DNA of 64,000 nt from a virus (taxonomy: Duplodnaviria > Caudoviricetes), in IMG/VR virus record IMGVR_UViG_3300028591_000124, positions 1 to 64,000 of that record; one strand, given 5' to 3'. The position numbers and the translations under genes were made by a program. The notes under the pieces were generated by a model. The model did not search any database. It was given only the letters and a program-made list of their open reading frames with translations, and was not told the DNA's origin. Positions 5,747-47,072 of this stretch are shown one piece after another. The stretch's first letter is position 1, and each line of letters starts with the position of its first letter.

Positions 5747-7392
5747 TGGCAAACGACAAAGGAGTTGAAACTGCCCAGGGGATCATAAACGGGTACGAAA
5801 CCCCGAAGATGGGTATCGGTATGCGTCACACCGGAAAAGAACGTTTTCTTGAAGGTGATGATGCTCAGAAGTATGTTGACCAGGCACCAGACATTCTTGT
5901 GTGCCAGATTAAGATCTGGAACCCAGCAGAAAAGGGAATCCAGCCAGCACCAGCCAAAGGAGAATGCAAAATGGTTCTCCATGAAGTTGAGTCCCTGGTA
6001 GTCAACAGCTCATATAAAAACGTGATAAGTACGGCATCTATAGTTATACCAAGAGGCTCTATCATCAAAAAGGTCATTACAAGTGCTTCTATTAACAGAA
6101 ACACTGAGGGGCAAGATAATCAGATTGCGACTGACATGAATTCCGAGAGCCCAGATGCAACTGTTGATAACGACAAGAGTTCGGATTCAAATAAAGTTGG
6201 AGATACCTCATTATATGAGCCAGACCATGTAAATGAAATGGGGCTGCTTCTGACAACCACAACAGAAAGTGGCGCACCTGTTTCTCCAAGTATGTTCTCA
6301 AATGGTGACCGTATAGAAATCCGTTGTGGATATACACAAGATCCCATTGTTGCTGAAAAAATAGATGAGTATGAAAACCACAAGTGTCTGAATCTTGTGT
6401 TTTCTGGTTATATTACTGGTATATCTCCACAATCACCAATTGAATTAAGGTGTGAAGATTTGGCTTATGTATTTCGCACAGTTAGTTGTGAAGATATTCT
6501 TTCTAAGGGAAATCGCAAAGTCATGGATTTCTTTGATGAAGGCGGGAAATATAATTGGCTCAAAGGAACTGGTATCGAACTGCATCCAGATGTAAAACAG
6601 CAAGACATCAATGTCGGTGTGGTTAATGTTACTCACCATATCACCGTTGCGGATGTTCTTAATGAATGGTCTAAAAGTGGTCTTGTGTGTTTTATGCGTC
6701 GCTGTGATGATGGAATCTTCAGGCTCTCAATTGGCAGGACATACATGAGTACGACTGCAACAGATACCGCTGATTCAATTATGTACCATCCAGACGGAAG
6801 TGGTATTCCTGTGATTTATTCTGACTGGGATATTGCGGATGATAATTTGTCAATCATGGAAGTTGACAAAAAATTTGTCATTATTGATGCTGAGGGCTGG
6901 AAGGTGGAGAACGGTCAGAACTACCATTGCAAATTCTCTCTCAGATTAAATCCTGAATGGTCACCACAAAATAACAGTGTTGAAAAATATCAGTTCATCA
7001 ATGATAAGGATTGGACGAGTAATCGAAAGGGGAAGCGCAAGAAAGGCTCTAAAGAACCCGTTCAAAATAAAGTTGCGGATCTGAAGAATTATTCCAGATA
7101 CCCATATATGGCAAAGAAATGGGGTTTGTCAAAAGACGAATTGAAACGCGAGGCCATTGAATATTACGAGAATTTCAATCCCAGTGGAGTGTCTGGAAAG
7201 CTTACTATATTTGGTGGACGTGACATTGTTCCCACAACCATTATTGCATTTGTTGACTATATGCAACCAGCTCGACAAGGATTCTATGTTGTCGAAGAAG
7301 TCAATACGAAATTTGGTGTGCATGGCTACAGACAAGAAATAACCATGCCTTATAGAATCAAGATTTTCGAAAACGTAAAAATCATCAAATAA
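5746..7392 (+). CDS. Baseplate hub protein (gpD/late control D-like)
   Basis: GDRIEIRCGY, VFSGYIT, ELRCED and C-terminal GFYVVEEVNTKFG motifs; position. Confidence 0.7.
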   Translation: MANDKGVETAQGIINGYETPKMGIGMRHTGKERFLEGDDAQKYVDQAPDILVCQIKIWNPAEKGIQPAPAKGECKMVLHEVESLVVNSSYKNVISTASIVIPRGSIIKKVITSASINRNTEGQDNQIATDMNSESPDATVDNDKSSDSNKVGDTSLYEPDHVNEMGLLLTTTTESGAPVSPSMFSNGDRIEIRCGYTQDPIVAEKIDEYENHKCLNLVFSGYITGISPQSPIELRCEDLAYVFRTVSCEDILSKGNRKVMDFFDEGGKYNWLKGTGIELHPDVKQQDINVGVVNVTHHITVADVLNEWSKSGLVCFMRRCDDGIFRLSIGRTYMSTTATDTADSIMYHPDGSGIPVIYSDWDIADDNLSIMEVDKKFVIIDAEGWKVENGQNYHCKFSLRLNPEWSPQNNSVEKYQFINDKDWTSNRKGKRKKGSKEPVQNKVADLKNYSRYPYMAKKWGLSKDELKREAIEYYENFNPSGVSGKLTIFGGRDIVPTTIIAFVDYMQPARQGFYVVEEVNTKFGVHGYRQEITMPYRIKIFENVKIIK

Positions 7393-42828: not shown

Positions 42829-43187
42829 AATATAAAACAGCTGAAAAAAGATTTATCGACGAGTATTGCGATGGTTGTGAAGATGGTCCTTTTTACAAGG
42901 ACGATCTGGTGAATGCGTTTAGGTCTGGCAGAAAGTGGAATCTGAAGCAAATGTTCATAGATTGCCACAAACAGCAGCCTAAGCAGAATGATGATGATAT
43001 TGCCGTTATCTGTAGTCTTGGTGATCAAGCTCCATTTTGTTTTGGCATTGAGGTTGTGACAGTAAAGGGTTTCGAATATCAGAATTTTGTCGAAAAAACA
43101 CCATACATACCTCTCTTCTGGTGTCGCTTGCGTAGTTTGTTGTCAATTTTAAATGGAGGATGGAATAAAGATGGCAGAGATAAATGA
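42825..43187 (+). CDS. Hypothetical protein
   Basis: 120-aa ORF overlapping neighbours. Confidence 0.5.
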
Positions 43188-44898
43188 ACTACAGCAATGG
43201 ATGGATGACCACATGATTTCATACAAGATTATGAAAGACGTGGTTACTATTCCTGAATTTGGCCGTTGTCTCTTTCAGGACATGACCAAGCGAGAGCATA
43301 TCTTCAAGGAGAATAAGCTTACTGGGGATGTCGAATTTGATTGTGTTGAAGTTTCGAATCTCCTGATAGAAGATGAGATATATTATGTCATCTTGAAGTT
43401 TGGTGACCAGTTTTATTATACTGACATCCGAAAGGATTTTAAATTGACACCACTCAGGCATATCGGAAAACGAAAAGAGCGTGAGGAAATGTATGTCAGG
43501 GAATACGTAAACCTTGGAATACATACGCCATTCGAGTTGTTGAATGGCTCAGGTGCCATATCCGAGTGGATTAAGACCGCCAAGTGGATGGGCCACAAAA
43601 GTATCGGTATTTGTGACAAGAACACAATGGCAGCAACACTTCAGCTTCAAAAAGAAGCCAGAAGTGCCGGTATTGGGTATGTTTTTGGGTATTCACTTGT
43701 AATGCAAATTGACGGTGAGGAAATCGGTGCTAAGATATACGTCCATACTCAAAAGGGATTTCGTAATCTTCTGAGGATTCAGAAAGCCATAAATGTTGAC
43801 CGTGAAGACGGGATGGTGGATTATTTGGAGGTTCTGAATAGGGCAGATGGTAATGTAATTGTGTTCGATAAATGGTCTGGTGAATGGATGACCCAGAACA
43901 AAGAGCTTCTGAGCGATTTCGACAAGGCATTTGATGGGTGGGTGTTCTTCCAGGTTGACATGAGCGAGTACCGTGCTGACCGTATTGATTCCAGATTGTT
44001 AGAATCACAGAAGGCATTTTTTGACGGTTTTTACAAATCAGGAAAGTGGGATCTTGGAATTGAACCAGTATTGATAGAAGACTGTTATTATATTGATGCC
44101 GACGAATACAAAAACAAAATCGTGCTCAATAAGATTGATACTGGTGTGACACATGAGCTTTCGTATGCCCAGTTCTATAAAGATGTGGATCAGTTATATG
44201 ATGAGTTCTGCGATCTGTTTTCAGAGAAATACGGTGATGATGTGTTCGATTTGATGGTTGACAATACTGTTTTGATTGCCAGTGAAAGCGATGCTGAGTA
44301 TAACACATCTTCTGTAAACTATGCGCCTCGTTATTCAATGACTGAAGAAGAGGAAGCCAAGTATGGCAATACTCATAATATGTTCAACCAGCTTATTGAA
44401 GACGGGTTCCAGCGTCTTGTCCCCAAAGATAAAGAATCTGAGTATCGCAAACGTTTGGAATATGAGAAATACGTTATTGAAAGTACAGATAATGTTGATT
44501 ATTATTTGATAACTTGGGATGAAATCAACTGGGCCCGCAAAAATGGTATTGCAGTAGGAGTTGGTCGTGGTTCTGCCGGTGGATGTCTTCTAAGTTTCTT
44601 ACTTGGGATAACCCAGATTGACCCGATGCCGTTTGATTTGCTGTTTGAGCGTTTCCTGCTTCCAGAACGCGGAGGATTGGAGCCAGCAAAGGTAACCGTT
44701 ATTGGTGACGATATTTCCAAAAAGGAATATGTCGAAGTAAAATTGGAGAATGGCAAAACAATCAATTTTGCCGACGATGCTGAATTCCTTGTCAAACGAA
44801 ACGGTGAAGAAATAACTGTTATCGGAAAGGAATTGCAACCTGGTGATGATATTGTTTTGGATAGAAAAGACGAATTGTTTACAATAGATGAATTGTAG
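43171..44898 (+). CDS. dnaE: DNA polymerase III alpha, N-terminal half (PHP + part of palm), ending in an intein-N-like remnant
   Basis: [30 protein letters not shown], then HINT-like tail; likely start 43171. Confidence 0.9.
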
Positions 44899-44900
44899 TT

Positions 44901-47072
44901 ATGAAGATAGATAGCGTAGAAATTAAGTGTGGCAAGAAACCACGTAAAGTTGTTTACTCTTTTGTTGATGACGGATACAGAAAGACCATGCGAGGATCAC
45001 TGCCTGATATTGATACGGACTTTGATGCGGATAAGCGTCCAGAAGTCAAAGCATATCTGGAGAGACGTTACAACCATGATGGTAAACAGCGCGTGTTCTC
45101 TGCCGGTACATTTACAACAGAGCAGATTCGTTCTGTCATTAAGGATGTGTGCCGTGTTCACCGTGTTTCTGCTAATATGGCCAATTACATTACGGCTATT
45201 ATTGACTCTGGTACGGATTGGACCGGATTGATGCAGCTTGCAGTCAAGGAAAAGAAAGTTCGTGATTTCATAGAGAAGCACTGGGATGTTTTTGAAGAGA
45301 TACGTCCAATTATGTTCCAACCTCGCTCTCCAGGTGTTCATGCGTCTGCACTGGTGATCACTCCAGATATTATCGAAGGTGAAGACGTAGAGTGTTTTGA
45401 CATTATTCCTATTAAAAAGATGGATGGACTCCTGGTATCTGAATTGAGTGGTGTGGAATTGGATGAATTGGGTCTCCTAAAGAATGACGTGCTTGGTATT
45501 GCTGAGCTTTCCAGATTGGATGAAATGATTCAGATCTGTAATAATGTATATCACACCAATTTATCTATTGAGGGTTTGGCCACCAGTTCTTTAGATGAAC
45601 CAAAGGTATTCGAGATCATCAATAAGGGCCTTACACAAGGTATCTTCCAGTTGTCATCTGTTGGTATGACAAGATTTGTTAGAAGTATGCACCCTGATTG
45701 CATTAATGATGTGATCGCTGCCAATGCTTTGTTCCGTCCAGCTACATTGGATTCTGGAGCTGCTGGGATGTATGTTGATGCCAAGAACGGTACTGTTGAT
45801 CCGGAATATCTTTGGGGAACTTATGATATTCTGAAAGATACCTATGCTGTCGCTGCATATCAGGAACAATATGCTGCACTTGCAAGAAATATCGGTGGTT
45901 TGAGTTTAGGCGATGGCGTGAATCTTGTAAAAGCCATTTCTAAGAAAAAGATAGAAAAAATCCGTAAGTTTAAGGACAAGTTCTATGCCGGTGCTCAGAA
46001 AAATGGTTGCCCTGATGAAGTTCGTGATCGTGTATGGAGCATTATTGAAGGTGGTGCCACGTATGGATTTAATAAATCACATGCTACTGCATACGGCATT
46101 ACGGCATACATCGGAGCATATATTAAGGCACTATATCCAACAGCTTTCTATACTGTATTGCTGAAGTGGGGTAAGGACGAGAACATCCCAGCTATCCTTG
46201 CAGAAATGAGAGAGCTTGGCAATATCACGATTACCAATCCAGACATCAACGTTTCAACTGATAATTTTGAAACAGACTACGAGACCAATGAGATTTACTG
46301 GTCACTTCTGAGAATCAAATTTGTCGGTGTCAGTATGGTTGATTTCATTGTTAAGAACAGGAATCGCTATGGAAAGTTTATGGATTTGGAAGATTTCATC
46401 ACTCGTATCTTCAAACACAAATTTAAGAAGTATAAGAGCTTTGAGGATGAGGATAATGAAGATGAATACAAACGTTGCCCAGTTAATGCCCGTGCCGTCA
46501 GGAACTTAATTATGGCTGGTGCATTTGACAAGGTTGAGAATGTCGGTTCTGTTACTGAGCGATATGGACTCTTGAAACATGCTGCTGAGCTCCTTGGGTT
46601 TGAAATCAAGGAGAAAGAAGTGCCACAAGAACTTCGTGATAAGCATTGGTTCTGGAGCCAACAGCAAATCAATCTGTCTGGCATCGGCTCTGTTGACTAT
46701 GAACGTATCTATAAAAATGAGACGTTACCATCCAGTATGTACAATTATACCTATTTTTCTCTTGACAATCTCCAGCAACCTGGACTTGGTGACAGAAAAG
46801 TCGGTATTTGTGCCACTATTGCTGAAGTCGAAGAACGTAGTTATAAAGACAAAAAGACTGGTGAGAAGAAGTATTATGGGAAAATCCAGCTTCAACAAAA
46901 TATCGATACAGCCACTCTTGTTATCTGGAATGATGCATGGATAAACGCCAAACAATATTTTATGCACAAGAAAGATTCCATTGTCATATTTGCCGGTAAC
47001 GCCAAGTGGAGTGATTATGACGAGAAGAACATACTCCAGATCAATAAGGGTTCGTATATTACTAATATTTAA
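44901..47072 (+). CDS. dnaE: DNA polymerase III alpha, C-terminal half, starting with an intein-C-like remnant
   Basis: MKIDSVEIK...VVYSFV then SLPDIDTDFD, GVHASA, LLKNDVLG, YGFNKSHATAY, OB fold. Confidence 0.92.
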   Translation: MKIDSVEIKCGKKPRKVVYSFVDDGYRKTMRGSLPDIDTDFDADKRPEVKAYLERRYNHDGKQRVFSAGTFTTEQIRSVIKDVCRVHRVSANMANYITAIIDSGTDWTGLMQLAVKEKKVRDFIEKHWDVFEEIRPIMFQPRSPGVHASALVITPDIIEGEDVECFDIIPIKKMDGLLVSELSGVELDELGLLKNDVLGIAELSRLDEMIQICNNVYHTNLSIEGLATSSLDEPKVFEIINKGLTQGIFQLSSVGMTRFVRSMHPDCINDVIAANALFRPATLDSGAAGMYVDAKNGTVDPEYLWGTYDILKDTYAVAAYQEQYAALARNIGGLSLGDGVNLVKAISKKKIEKIRKFKDKFYAGAQKNGCPDEVRDRVWSIIEGGATYGFNKSHATAYGITAYIGAYIKALYPTAFYTVLLKWGKDENIPAILAEMRELGNITITNPDINVSTDNFETDYETNEIYWSLLRIKFVGVSMVDFIVKNRNRYGKFMDLEDFITRIFKHKFKKYKSFEDEDNEDEYKRCPVNARAVRNLIMAGAFDKVENVGSVTERYGLLKHAAELLGFEIKEKEVPQELRDKHWFWSQQQINLSGIGSVDYERIYKNETLPSSMYNYTYFSLDNLQQPGLGDRKVGICATIAEVEERSYKDKKTGEKKYYGKIQLQQNIDTATLVIWNDAWINAKQYFMHKKDSIVIFAGNAKWSDYDEKNILQINKGSYITNI

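Follow-up and report, generated by a model that had tools for sequence, protein, structure and literature searches.

The window analysed here comprises 64,000 nucleotides (positions 1 to 64,000) of the IMG/VR virus record IMGVR_UViG_3300028591_000124, a member of the Caudoviricetes. The source record, from a gut phage, has 112,402 bp, is rated 100% complete in IMG/VR and holds one alpha subunit of DNA polymerase III (Pol III alpha, DnaE), encoded in two pieces. We analysed the break between these pieces together with the sequences that border it, a tail on the first product and a head on the second, which an earlier sequence-only reading of this DNA had taken for the remnant of a split intein. 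The locus contains the following features (aa, amino acids; IntN and IntC, the N- and C-terminal halves of a split intein; ORF, open reading frame):

43153-44898, plus strand: DnaE N piece, 581 aa, with the PHP domain, the first part of the palm and the intein-derived tail (from the ORF list and Pfam).
44644-44670, plus strand: last N-extein motif, FERFLLPER (read from the sequence; invariant in 11 of 11 aligned relatives).
44671-44895, plus strand: 75-aa tail, a truncated dead IntN, with Gly at position 1, ADDA for the TxxH of block B and a net charge of -9.
44896-44903, plus strand: junction TAG-TT-ATG, that is, the N-piece stop, 2 nt and the C-piece start in the other frame.
44901-47072, plus strand: DnaE C piece, 723 aa, with the head, the remainder of the palm, the fingers, HhH and the C-terminal region (from the ORF translation and Pfam).
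44901-44996, plus strand: 32-aa head, an IntC-derived hairpin with degenerate blocks F and G, Gly for Asn at its end and a net charge of +5.
44997-45023, plus strand: first C-extein motif, SLPDIDTDF, with two of the three catalytic Asp residues (read from the sequence; the palm profile resumes at ORF2 residue 30).

The N piece matches PHROG 405/13169 DNA polymerase families, and Pfam places PHP at its residues 123-217 and profile positions 3-99 of DNA_pol3_alpha (PF07733) at residues 411-507. In the C piece, positions 97-260 of the same profile fall at residues 30-199, followed by DNA_pol3_finger at 205-369 and HHH_6 at 441-510; all these domains, including both halves of DNA_pol3_alpha, score above the Pfam cut-offs. 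Because the palm profile is divided in this way between ORF1 (3-99) and ORF2 (97-260), it is a single palm domain that has been cut. The cut lies between FERFLLPER and SLPDIDTDF, 3-4 residues ahead of the catalytic aspartates, and contiguous DnaE proteins (Chryseobacterium phage MA9V-3, Bacillus phages and Dulem virus 36) have about 2 residues between these two motifs. The C piece holds PDIDTDF, whose D36, D38 and D40 are invariant among the aligned relatives, and a further catalytic Asp within GLLKNDVLG; we take the catalytic triad to be that of E. coli D401, D403 and D555. The catalytic core, which Pol III alpha has on one polypeptide, is thus spread here over two ORFs in different frames, an arrangement that is conserved, and the split pair is the only C-family replicative polymerase of the phage, made as two polypeptides. 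With the N-piece stop TAG at 44896-44898 and the C-piece ATG at 44901, the two genes are probably translationally coupled. The sequence-only reading had described this break of the DnaE motif correctly, with the same stop, start and change of frame; the tail and head sequences that it quoted are exact, and the interval 44671-44996 to which it assigned the remnant brackets both of them exactly. It was also right that the site of the cyanobacterial split intein is intact and a different site is used, since YGFNKSH runs uninterrupted through ORF2. The result bears on annotation as well, as current labels make two 'DNA polymerase' genes of the halves and, in the single case examined, leave the C half unannotated.

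To trace the origin of the tail and head, we aligned them by anchoring on the extein sequence and compared them with known families. The best Pfam match of the tail is Intein_splicing (PF14890; E 1e-4, 22.6-22.8 bits, profile positions 36-94 of 155), a family matched by eight of 11 diverse tails with a best E of 4e-5, all under the cut-off. A profile of the tail run against all PDB sequences gave three matches, all inteins (2lcj, 2cw7 and 9hth). Run with HMMER against 1.84 billion representatives, this profile retrieved at E<1e-3 a set of IntN halves with Cys1 and TxxH intact, located at the C-termini of split ribonucleotide reductase (RNR), PolA-like and DnaE pieces. When the tail alignment was compared by hhalign with a set of IntN sequences bearing Cys1 and TxxH, the probability was 98.9% (E 1e-17, 43% identity over 47 columns), with tail residues 16-62 matching IntN positions 63-109 of 115. 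The head follows the IntC pattern, with an M-K-(I/V) start, a long hairpin, V-x-D-x-F-V as block F and G-Y-x5-G as a degenerate block G. A split intein is defined by an IntN that closes the upstream product and an IntC that opens the downstream one. The tail and head follow this order and are a truncated, catalytically dead split intein.

A separate fracture point of DnaE was seen in P0155, a phage DnaE N piece of 759 aa that carries a full intein in the PHP motif and has a canonical-looking IntN end (Cys1, TSDH). Its split site differs from the one described here and lies within GRG/C (the slash marks the boundary, here and below).

The fold was modelled on the relative L012, which is 68-70% identical in this region and whose two ORFs are in frame and parted by a single TAA, read as Gly. 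In the AlphaFold2 (AF2) model, tail (model residues 11-75) and head (87-114) form one beta module with a pLDDT of about 80-94, in which the head is a long hairpin (pLDDT about 90) packed on the tail. The leading Foldseek matches of this model are all inteins, from E 3e-4, and all 50 rows returned by VIA-align are HINT (Z 4-7.2); model residues 26-101 align to residues 52-114 of Npu DnaE (Z 5.3, rmsd 2.5, 62 aligned), and Hedgehog and bacterial intein-like (BIL) structures are also among the fold matches. An exhaustive search of 48,161 representative chains placed HINT in the top 27 positions (Z 7.0-3.2), the first non-HINT chain having a Z of 3.2. The model thus points to a HINT fold of which about two thirds would be present. 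When the window tail was modelled alone, its mean pLDDT was 61.5 and fell to about 50 at residues 11-30; the same strands reach 80-91 with the head, which hints that tail and head fold mutually.

The splicing chemistry has been lost from this element. The N-terminal 45-60 or so residues of the intein, block A included, are deleted, and position 1, which follows PER, is Gly in the window and G or A in 92 of 92 close clusters; Cys or Ser occurs there only in a few distant relatives (Cys in P0104, P0107, P0122 and L024). The window's ADDA, which is DxDA in most relatives, aligns with the TYNH/TGNH of IntN relatives that keep the motif. Among the HMMER matches listed, every N piece of this site lacks TxxH, so that its loss must be old. 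At the other end, the window head closes with MRG/S, and the last residue of 69 distinct heads is G in 59, A in 3, K in 2, S in 2, I in 1 and Asn in none. The +1 residue, Ser in the window, is Gln or Ala in 10 of 69 relatives, and the penultimate residue of block G is His in 20 of 69. Since Cys1 is replaced by Gly, the Thr and His of block B by Ala and the terminal Asn by Gly, the element cannot splice and, judged by its residues, it can do so by no known route. The sequence-only reading had claimed that every splicing residue is missing, which is correct for the window (Gly at position 1, ADDA, no terminal Asn); it overlooked a degenerate block G that is present (G-Y-x5-G followed by S). Two of its details need correction: the Asp of block F has not become Ser, the position being Tyr in the window and Asp in 66 of 69 distinct relatives, and what has been kept is not half of a HINT fold but about two thirds of a mini-intein.

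The Tyr at ORF2 residue 19 (44955-44957) is found in the window although the relative L006, with a tail 100% identical, has Asp; the difference (TAC vs GAC) is either genuine or stems from a base error. Class 3 splicing, which relies on a Cys in block F, was considered for the window and rejected, there being neither such a Cys nor a terminal Asn. Canonical full inteins occur elsewhere in the C pieces of L027 (6970-9777) and L032 (2934-5738), which are about 935 aa long. One is of the type FNK/C...CN/SH with an HNH domain, beside the cyanobacterial DnaE site, and the other is GL/C...HN/CYQE, with a Pfam Intein_splicing score of 52 bits, above the cut-off. Where canonical inteins occur in this clade they are thus easily recognised, and inteins have targeted its DnaE repeatedly.

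The split is shared by the relatives of the phage. Homologues of the tail were collected by a word-indexed search and grouped into protein clusters at 90% identity, and the same tail ends 92 clusters, all of them N pieces of about 570-580 aa or fragments. The homologue search limited to longer proteins gave no fused form bearing the tail, and the one limited to shorter proteins gave no free-standing head peptide. We also fetched 80 loci of IMG/VR relatives with the C-piece profile. The gene is split at the identical point in all 80, with a tight adjacent junction like that of the window in 25 and a cargo of 0.7-2.5 kb between the halves in more than 46. The cultured Bacteroides phage BS-TP1 likewise has the N piece, then a Dda/PIF1-like helicase gene and then an unannotated C piece; it was the sole match of the junction in a blastn search of phage records, where megablast gave no match. 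Since whole genes lie between the halves in most relatives, two separate polypeptides are the rule, and the 92 clusters and 80 of 80 split loci, most with genes between, are due neither to chance nor to sequencing error. As a general mechanism, both an artefactual frameshift and a programmed fusion are thereby excluded.

These data also show that the gap between the DnaE halves is a landing pad. The cargo types in the relatives are a PIF1/Dda-like helicase, an N6/N4 DNA methylase, a Bro-N/ANT protein and HNH (NUMOD4-HNH_3) or GIY-YIG endonucleases. Gaps with cargo span, among others, L001:4549-5874, L028:6421-7716, L031:6212-7753, L014:4522-5361 and L105:3471-6004, and that of the window (44896-44903) is empty. 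An HNH endonuclease lies in the gap of L014, L024, L027, L090, L107, L110, L118 and L119 and a GIY-YIG endonuclease in that of L105; the window, with its gap of 2 nt, has no free-standing homing endonuclease between the halves.

In the marine Cellulophaga phage phi13:1 (L002:4291-4502) and in Tenacibaculum phage Larrie (L026:4291-4503), the split is at the same site and erosion of the remnant has gone further, leaving 52 aa of tail and 17 aa of head, the latter with one strand; the annotation calls each half simply 'DNA polymerase III alpha subunit'. Matches by tblastn that seemed to cover the tail in Bacillus phages and Dulem virus 36 proved to be spurious extensions, DnaE being contiguous there and free of any insert. 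Synonymous divergence between the window (44644-45600) and L008 changes abruptly at the junction: before it, in the N-side extein and the tail, dS is 1.1-1.4, and after it, in the head and the C-side extein, 0.2-0.3. This jump means that the halves do not share one history and that a recombination breakpoint lies at the split or close to it.

The tail and head are under purifying selection. Where dS is unsaturated, the tail has a dN/dS ratio of 0.07-0.09 and the head one of 0.04-0.11, values that show faster change than in the exteins and are far under neutrality, and many columns of both, surface acidic residues included, are invariant or nearly so. The net charges in the window, negative in the tail and positive in the head, are as in split inteins. 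At its C-terminus the tail is prolonged by 13 conserved residues, D-(R/N)-(K/R)-D-x-L-F-T, a stretch absent from the IntN relatives with intact residues. This extension, whose model has low confidence, may touch the polymerase body.

We consider it likely that the dead split-intein remnant docks the two DnaE halves without splicing. In the mechanism that we propose, the two pieces would be translated from coupled genes, the break lying inside a former split intein of the phage 'fractured gene' kind. The acidic 75-aa IntN-like tail and the basic 32-aa IntC-like hairpin would co-fold into a HINT-like beta module, and this module would hold the end of FERFLLPER beside the start of SLPDIDTDF, the palm and active site being rebuilt non-covalently, without a peptide bond. 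We infer that the tails bind each other, that no peptide bond forms and that docking is the reason why the remnant has been kept. Engineered splicing-dead split inteins serve as affinity pairs. By analogy, these pairs and the phage enzymes that are split by homing endonucleases and hold together non-covalently both fit a docking role. A broader proposal is that the dead split intein was exapted as an obligate heterodimerisation module of a two-chain polymerase across a large clade of Bacteroidota phages, in which the break doubles as a landing pad for mobile cassettes, some with a stop-led gap that would need a ribosome hop. We offer this tentatively and would put its chances at a little under even.

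Several observations weigh against docking as the explanation. The Intein_splicing score of the tail falls below the gathering cut-off of 35.8. The L012 model is covalently joined by stop read-through, which favours the association of tail and head, and the structural Z-scores are middling (<=7.2), so that it is the purity of the match list, combined with the sequence matches, that carries the case for the fold. Nor do all members of the clade show charge complementarity, the tail/head charges being -8/-1 in L028 and -6/0 in L030. Nine relatives have a stop codon after the head, which without recoding would there be a free peptide, and the large interface between the palm exteins might alone be sufficient for assembly. 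The most direct counter-example is the syntenic relative P0122 (L033:3001-6774), a contiguous DnaE of 1257 aa with the remnant inside, which came up only in the exhaustive HMMER search; its contig keeps the order DnaB, primase, DnaE and RNase T-like, and its remnant has Cys at position 1, TNDS for TxxH, a shortened head and no His-Asn. P0122 represents either the state before the split or a re-fusion. In both cases the remnant is also kept where no clasp is needed, and a 'zipper' is perhaps not its sole role. The zipper of a domesticated intein that the sequence-only reading had proposed is supported, as a likely role, by every computation made. The HINT similarity of the tails is borne out by sequence searches and by Foldseek, the survey of homologues shows a split that is kept in all loci, mostly with genes between the halves, and is no frameshift artefact, and purifying selection and the predicted co-folding agree with it.

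The same observations bear on other explanations of the remnant. The dead intein might be an entrenched relic, not cleanly deletable and kept only because it must stay folded beside the active site, with the palm interface joining the halves. P0122, which retains the remnant though contiguous and in no need of a clasp, would agree with this, as would the marine Flavobacteriia phages that have whittled it to a 52-aa tail and a 17-aa head, and other phage genes split by homing endonucleases work without an intein (PMC2988022). Nevertheless, dN/dS far below 1 and the many near-invariant residues, surface acidic ones included, speak for more than a relic, the head hairpin is kept in 69 of 69 distinct relatives, and the tail is predicted to be ordered only with the head; we regard this explanation as unlikely. 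The retention of the remnant in P0122 could also mean that the HINT-like module has a new function and binds another partner, besides or instead of clasping. The candidates are another protein of the replisome, for instance the RNase T-like exonuclease whose gene lies nearby, the clamp and DNA. The replacement of TxxH by DxDA and the 13-residue extension, both conserved and absent from intact IntN relatives, are consistent with it. No partner has been identified, however, no family but HINT was matched and the proposal is speculation from conservation alone, so that we find it improbable.

Non-canonical trans-splicing of a class 2-like or class 3-like kind, yielding a single-chain DnaE, could be suggested by the Ser at +1, by the Cys at position 1 in P0104, P0107, P0122 and L024 and by a Cys beside the block-F Asp in many relatives. 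The window itself, however, has Gly at position 1, lacks the Thr and His of block B, and has Tyr for the block-F Asp and no block-F Cys, while Gly occupies the place where an Asn (or Gln/Asp) must cyclise. Terminal Asn is found in 0 of 69 heads, Gln or Ala stands at +1 in 10 of 69 and the N-terminal third of the fold, with block A, is missing; splicing of this kind is very improbable. As for the window being an artefact, that is, a contiguous gene with a dead mini-intein that was broken by a sequencing frameshift, or ORFs joined by programmed frameshifting, the stop-start gap of only 2 nt and the single TAA between the in-frame ORFs of L012-type relatives would allow it. An identical break in some 90 clusters from many samples, with 0.7-2.5 kb of other genes between the halves in most relatives, makes it scarcely credible.

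The closest known system is the 'fractured gene' arrangement described by Dassa et al. 2009 (PMC2677866) in phage-like loci, where a split intein and a free-standing homing endonuclease gene lie between the halves of a gene; three DnaE loci are among them. As in those genes, a replication gene is present as two ORFs, with an IntN ending the first product and an IntC opening the second. In relatives of the window, a NUMOD4-HNH_3 or GIY-YIG endonuclease gene can occupy precisely this gap, and among sequences with Cys1 and TxxH intact the tail is closest to the N-halves of split inteins borne by split RNR pieces of this kind. In contrast, the inteins of 'fractured genes' keep six motifs and five catalytic residues and splice, and here all catalytic residues are gone, the first 45-60 or so residues are deleted and the window lacks an endonuclease gene. 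The cyanobacterial Ssp and Npu DnaE-n/DnaE-c pairs are similar in being a split C-family polymerase with an acidic IntN end and a basic IntC start. Their genes, however, are at separate loci and their intein is highly active, whereas here the genes are adjacent, the chemistry is dead and the site is another one.

Homing endonucleases have split other phage genes whose products assemble without inteins, such as Aeh1 nrdA-a/mobE/nrdA-b, T4 gene 39/mobA/gene 60 and phage 25 gp43A/B (PMC2988022). These share with the window's DnaE an essential phage enzyme of replication or nucleotide metabolism made as two polypeptides that reassemble non-covalently (here as proposed) and a split site associated with HNH, but they have no intein-derived sequence at their breaks, where the present clade has a conserved HINT-derived module on both ends. 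A fold that outlives canonical splicing is also known from non-splicing or domesticated HINT proteins (yeast HO as a degenerate intein, bacterial intein-like domains and Hedgehog Hint); those are single chains with some chemistry or an endonuclease role, while the present element is split, truncated and without any recognisable catalytic residue. The group 2.2 jumbo phages of Iyer et al. 2021 (PMC7824862) have a split minimal Pol III alpha, in which the C-family catalytic module is likewise made as two proteins presumed to reconstitute. That enzyme is a stripped-down accessory polymerase with its halves encoded far apart and no intein-like ends described. The DnaE of the window, on the other hand, has the full-length PHP-palm-fingers-HhH architecture and is the only polymerase III alpha of its genome.

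In a search of the literature that was incomplete, we found no account of a natural split intein that is splicing-dead and acts as a joint, and none of this element for Bacteroides or Cellulophaga phages. If the docking proposal is true, nature arrived at what engineers have built by hand, a splicing-dead split intein as an affinity pair. Intein evolution would then have an end-point other than loss, a mobile self-removing element having become a permanent structural part of an essential enzyme. The remnant would sit beside the active site of a replicative polymerase in abundant human-gut and marine Bacteroidota phages. The compact, non-reactive docking pair of 75 + 32 aa comes in many sequence variants that would be usable as orthogonal parts. 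The clade holds the remnant in split-adjacent, split-with-cargo and contiguous forms, plus canonical inteins at other sites, which makes the order of events reconstructable.

Finally, we detected stop-led inserts in the catalytic motif of nine divergent relatives. Each insert has 5-12 nt, opens with a stop codon and, some 35 codons after the start of the C piece, parts SLP(D) exactly from D(I/V)D; the motif of the window (44988-45023) is uninterrupted. The inserts were located at L024:6286-6330, L027:6866-6900, L032:2822-2860 and L052:~6106-6117, and just before nt 6001 in L090, L102, L107, L110 and L118. Examples are CCG/TAAGGCG/GAT, CCG/TGAGTCG/GAT, CCG/TAAGGAAGACTG/GAT and GAC/TAATT/GAC. 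As the inserts are 5, 7, 8 and 12 nt long, no single frameshift fits them. A short ribosomal hop that restores SLP-D(I/V)D would, judging by the nucleotides, fit all nine. The candidate take-off codon is CCG in eight loci and GAC in L027, and the candidate landing triplet, just before the resumed Asp codon, is xCG in five loci, CTG in two, ACA in one and an identical GAC in L027. An alternative that is possible in some loci is a free head peptide with a restart of the C piece at an overlapping start codon, which is feasible in L090, L118 and L024 but not in L032.

A NUMOD4-HNH_3 gene lies immediately upstream of the head in seven of the nine loci with an insert vs four of the 65 without (Fisher 6e-6, uncorrected for kinship). 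In T4 gene 39/mobA/gene 60, the bypass insert travels with an HNH homing endonuclease (bioRxiv 10.1101/2022.08.31.505936, PMC2988022), and the stop-led inserts resemble the gene 60/mobA bypass cassette in miniature.

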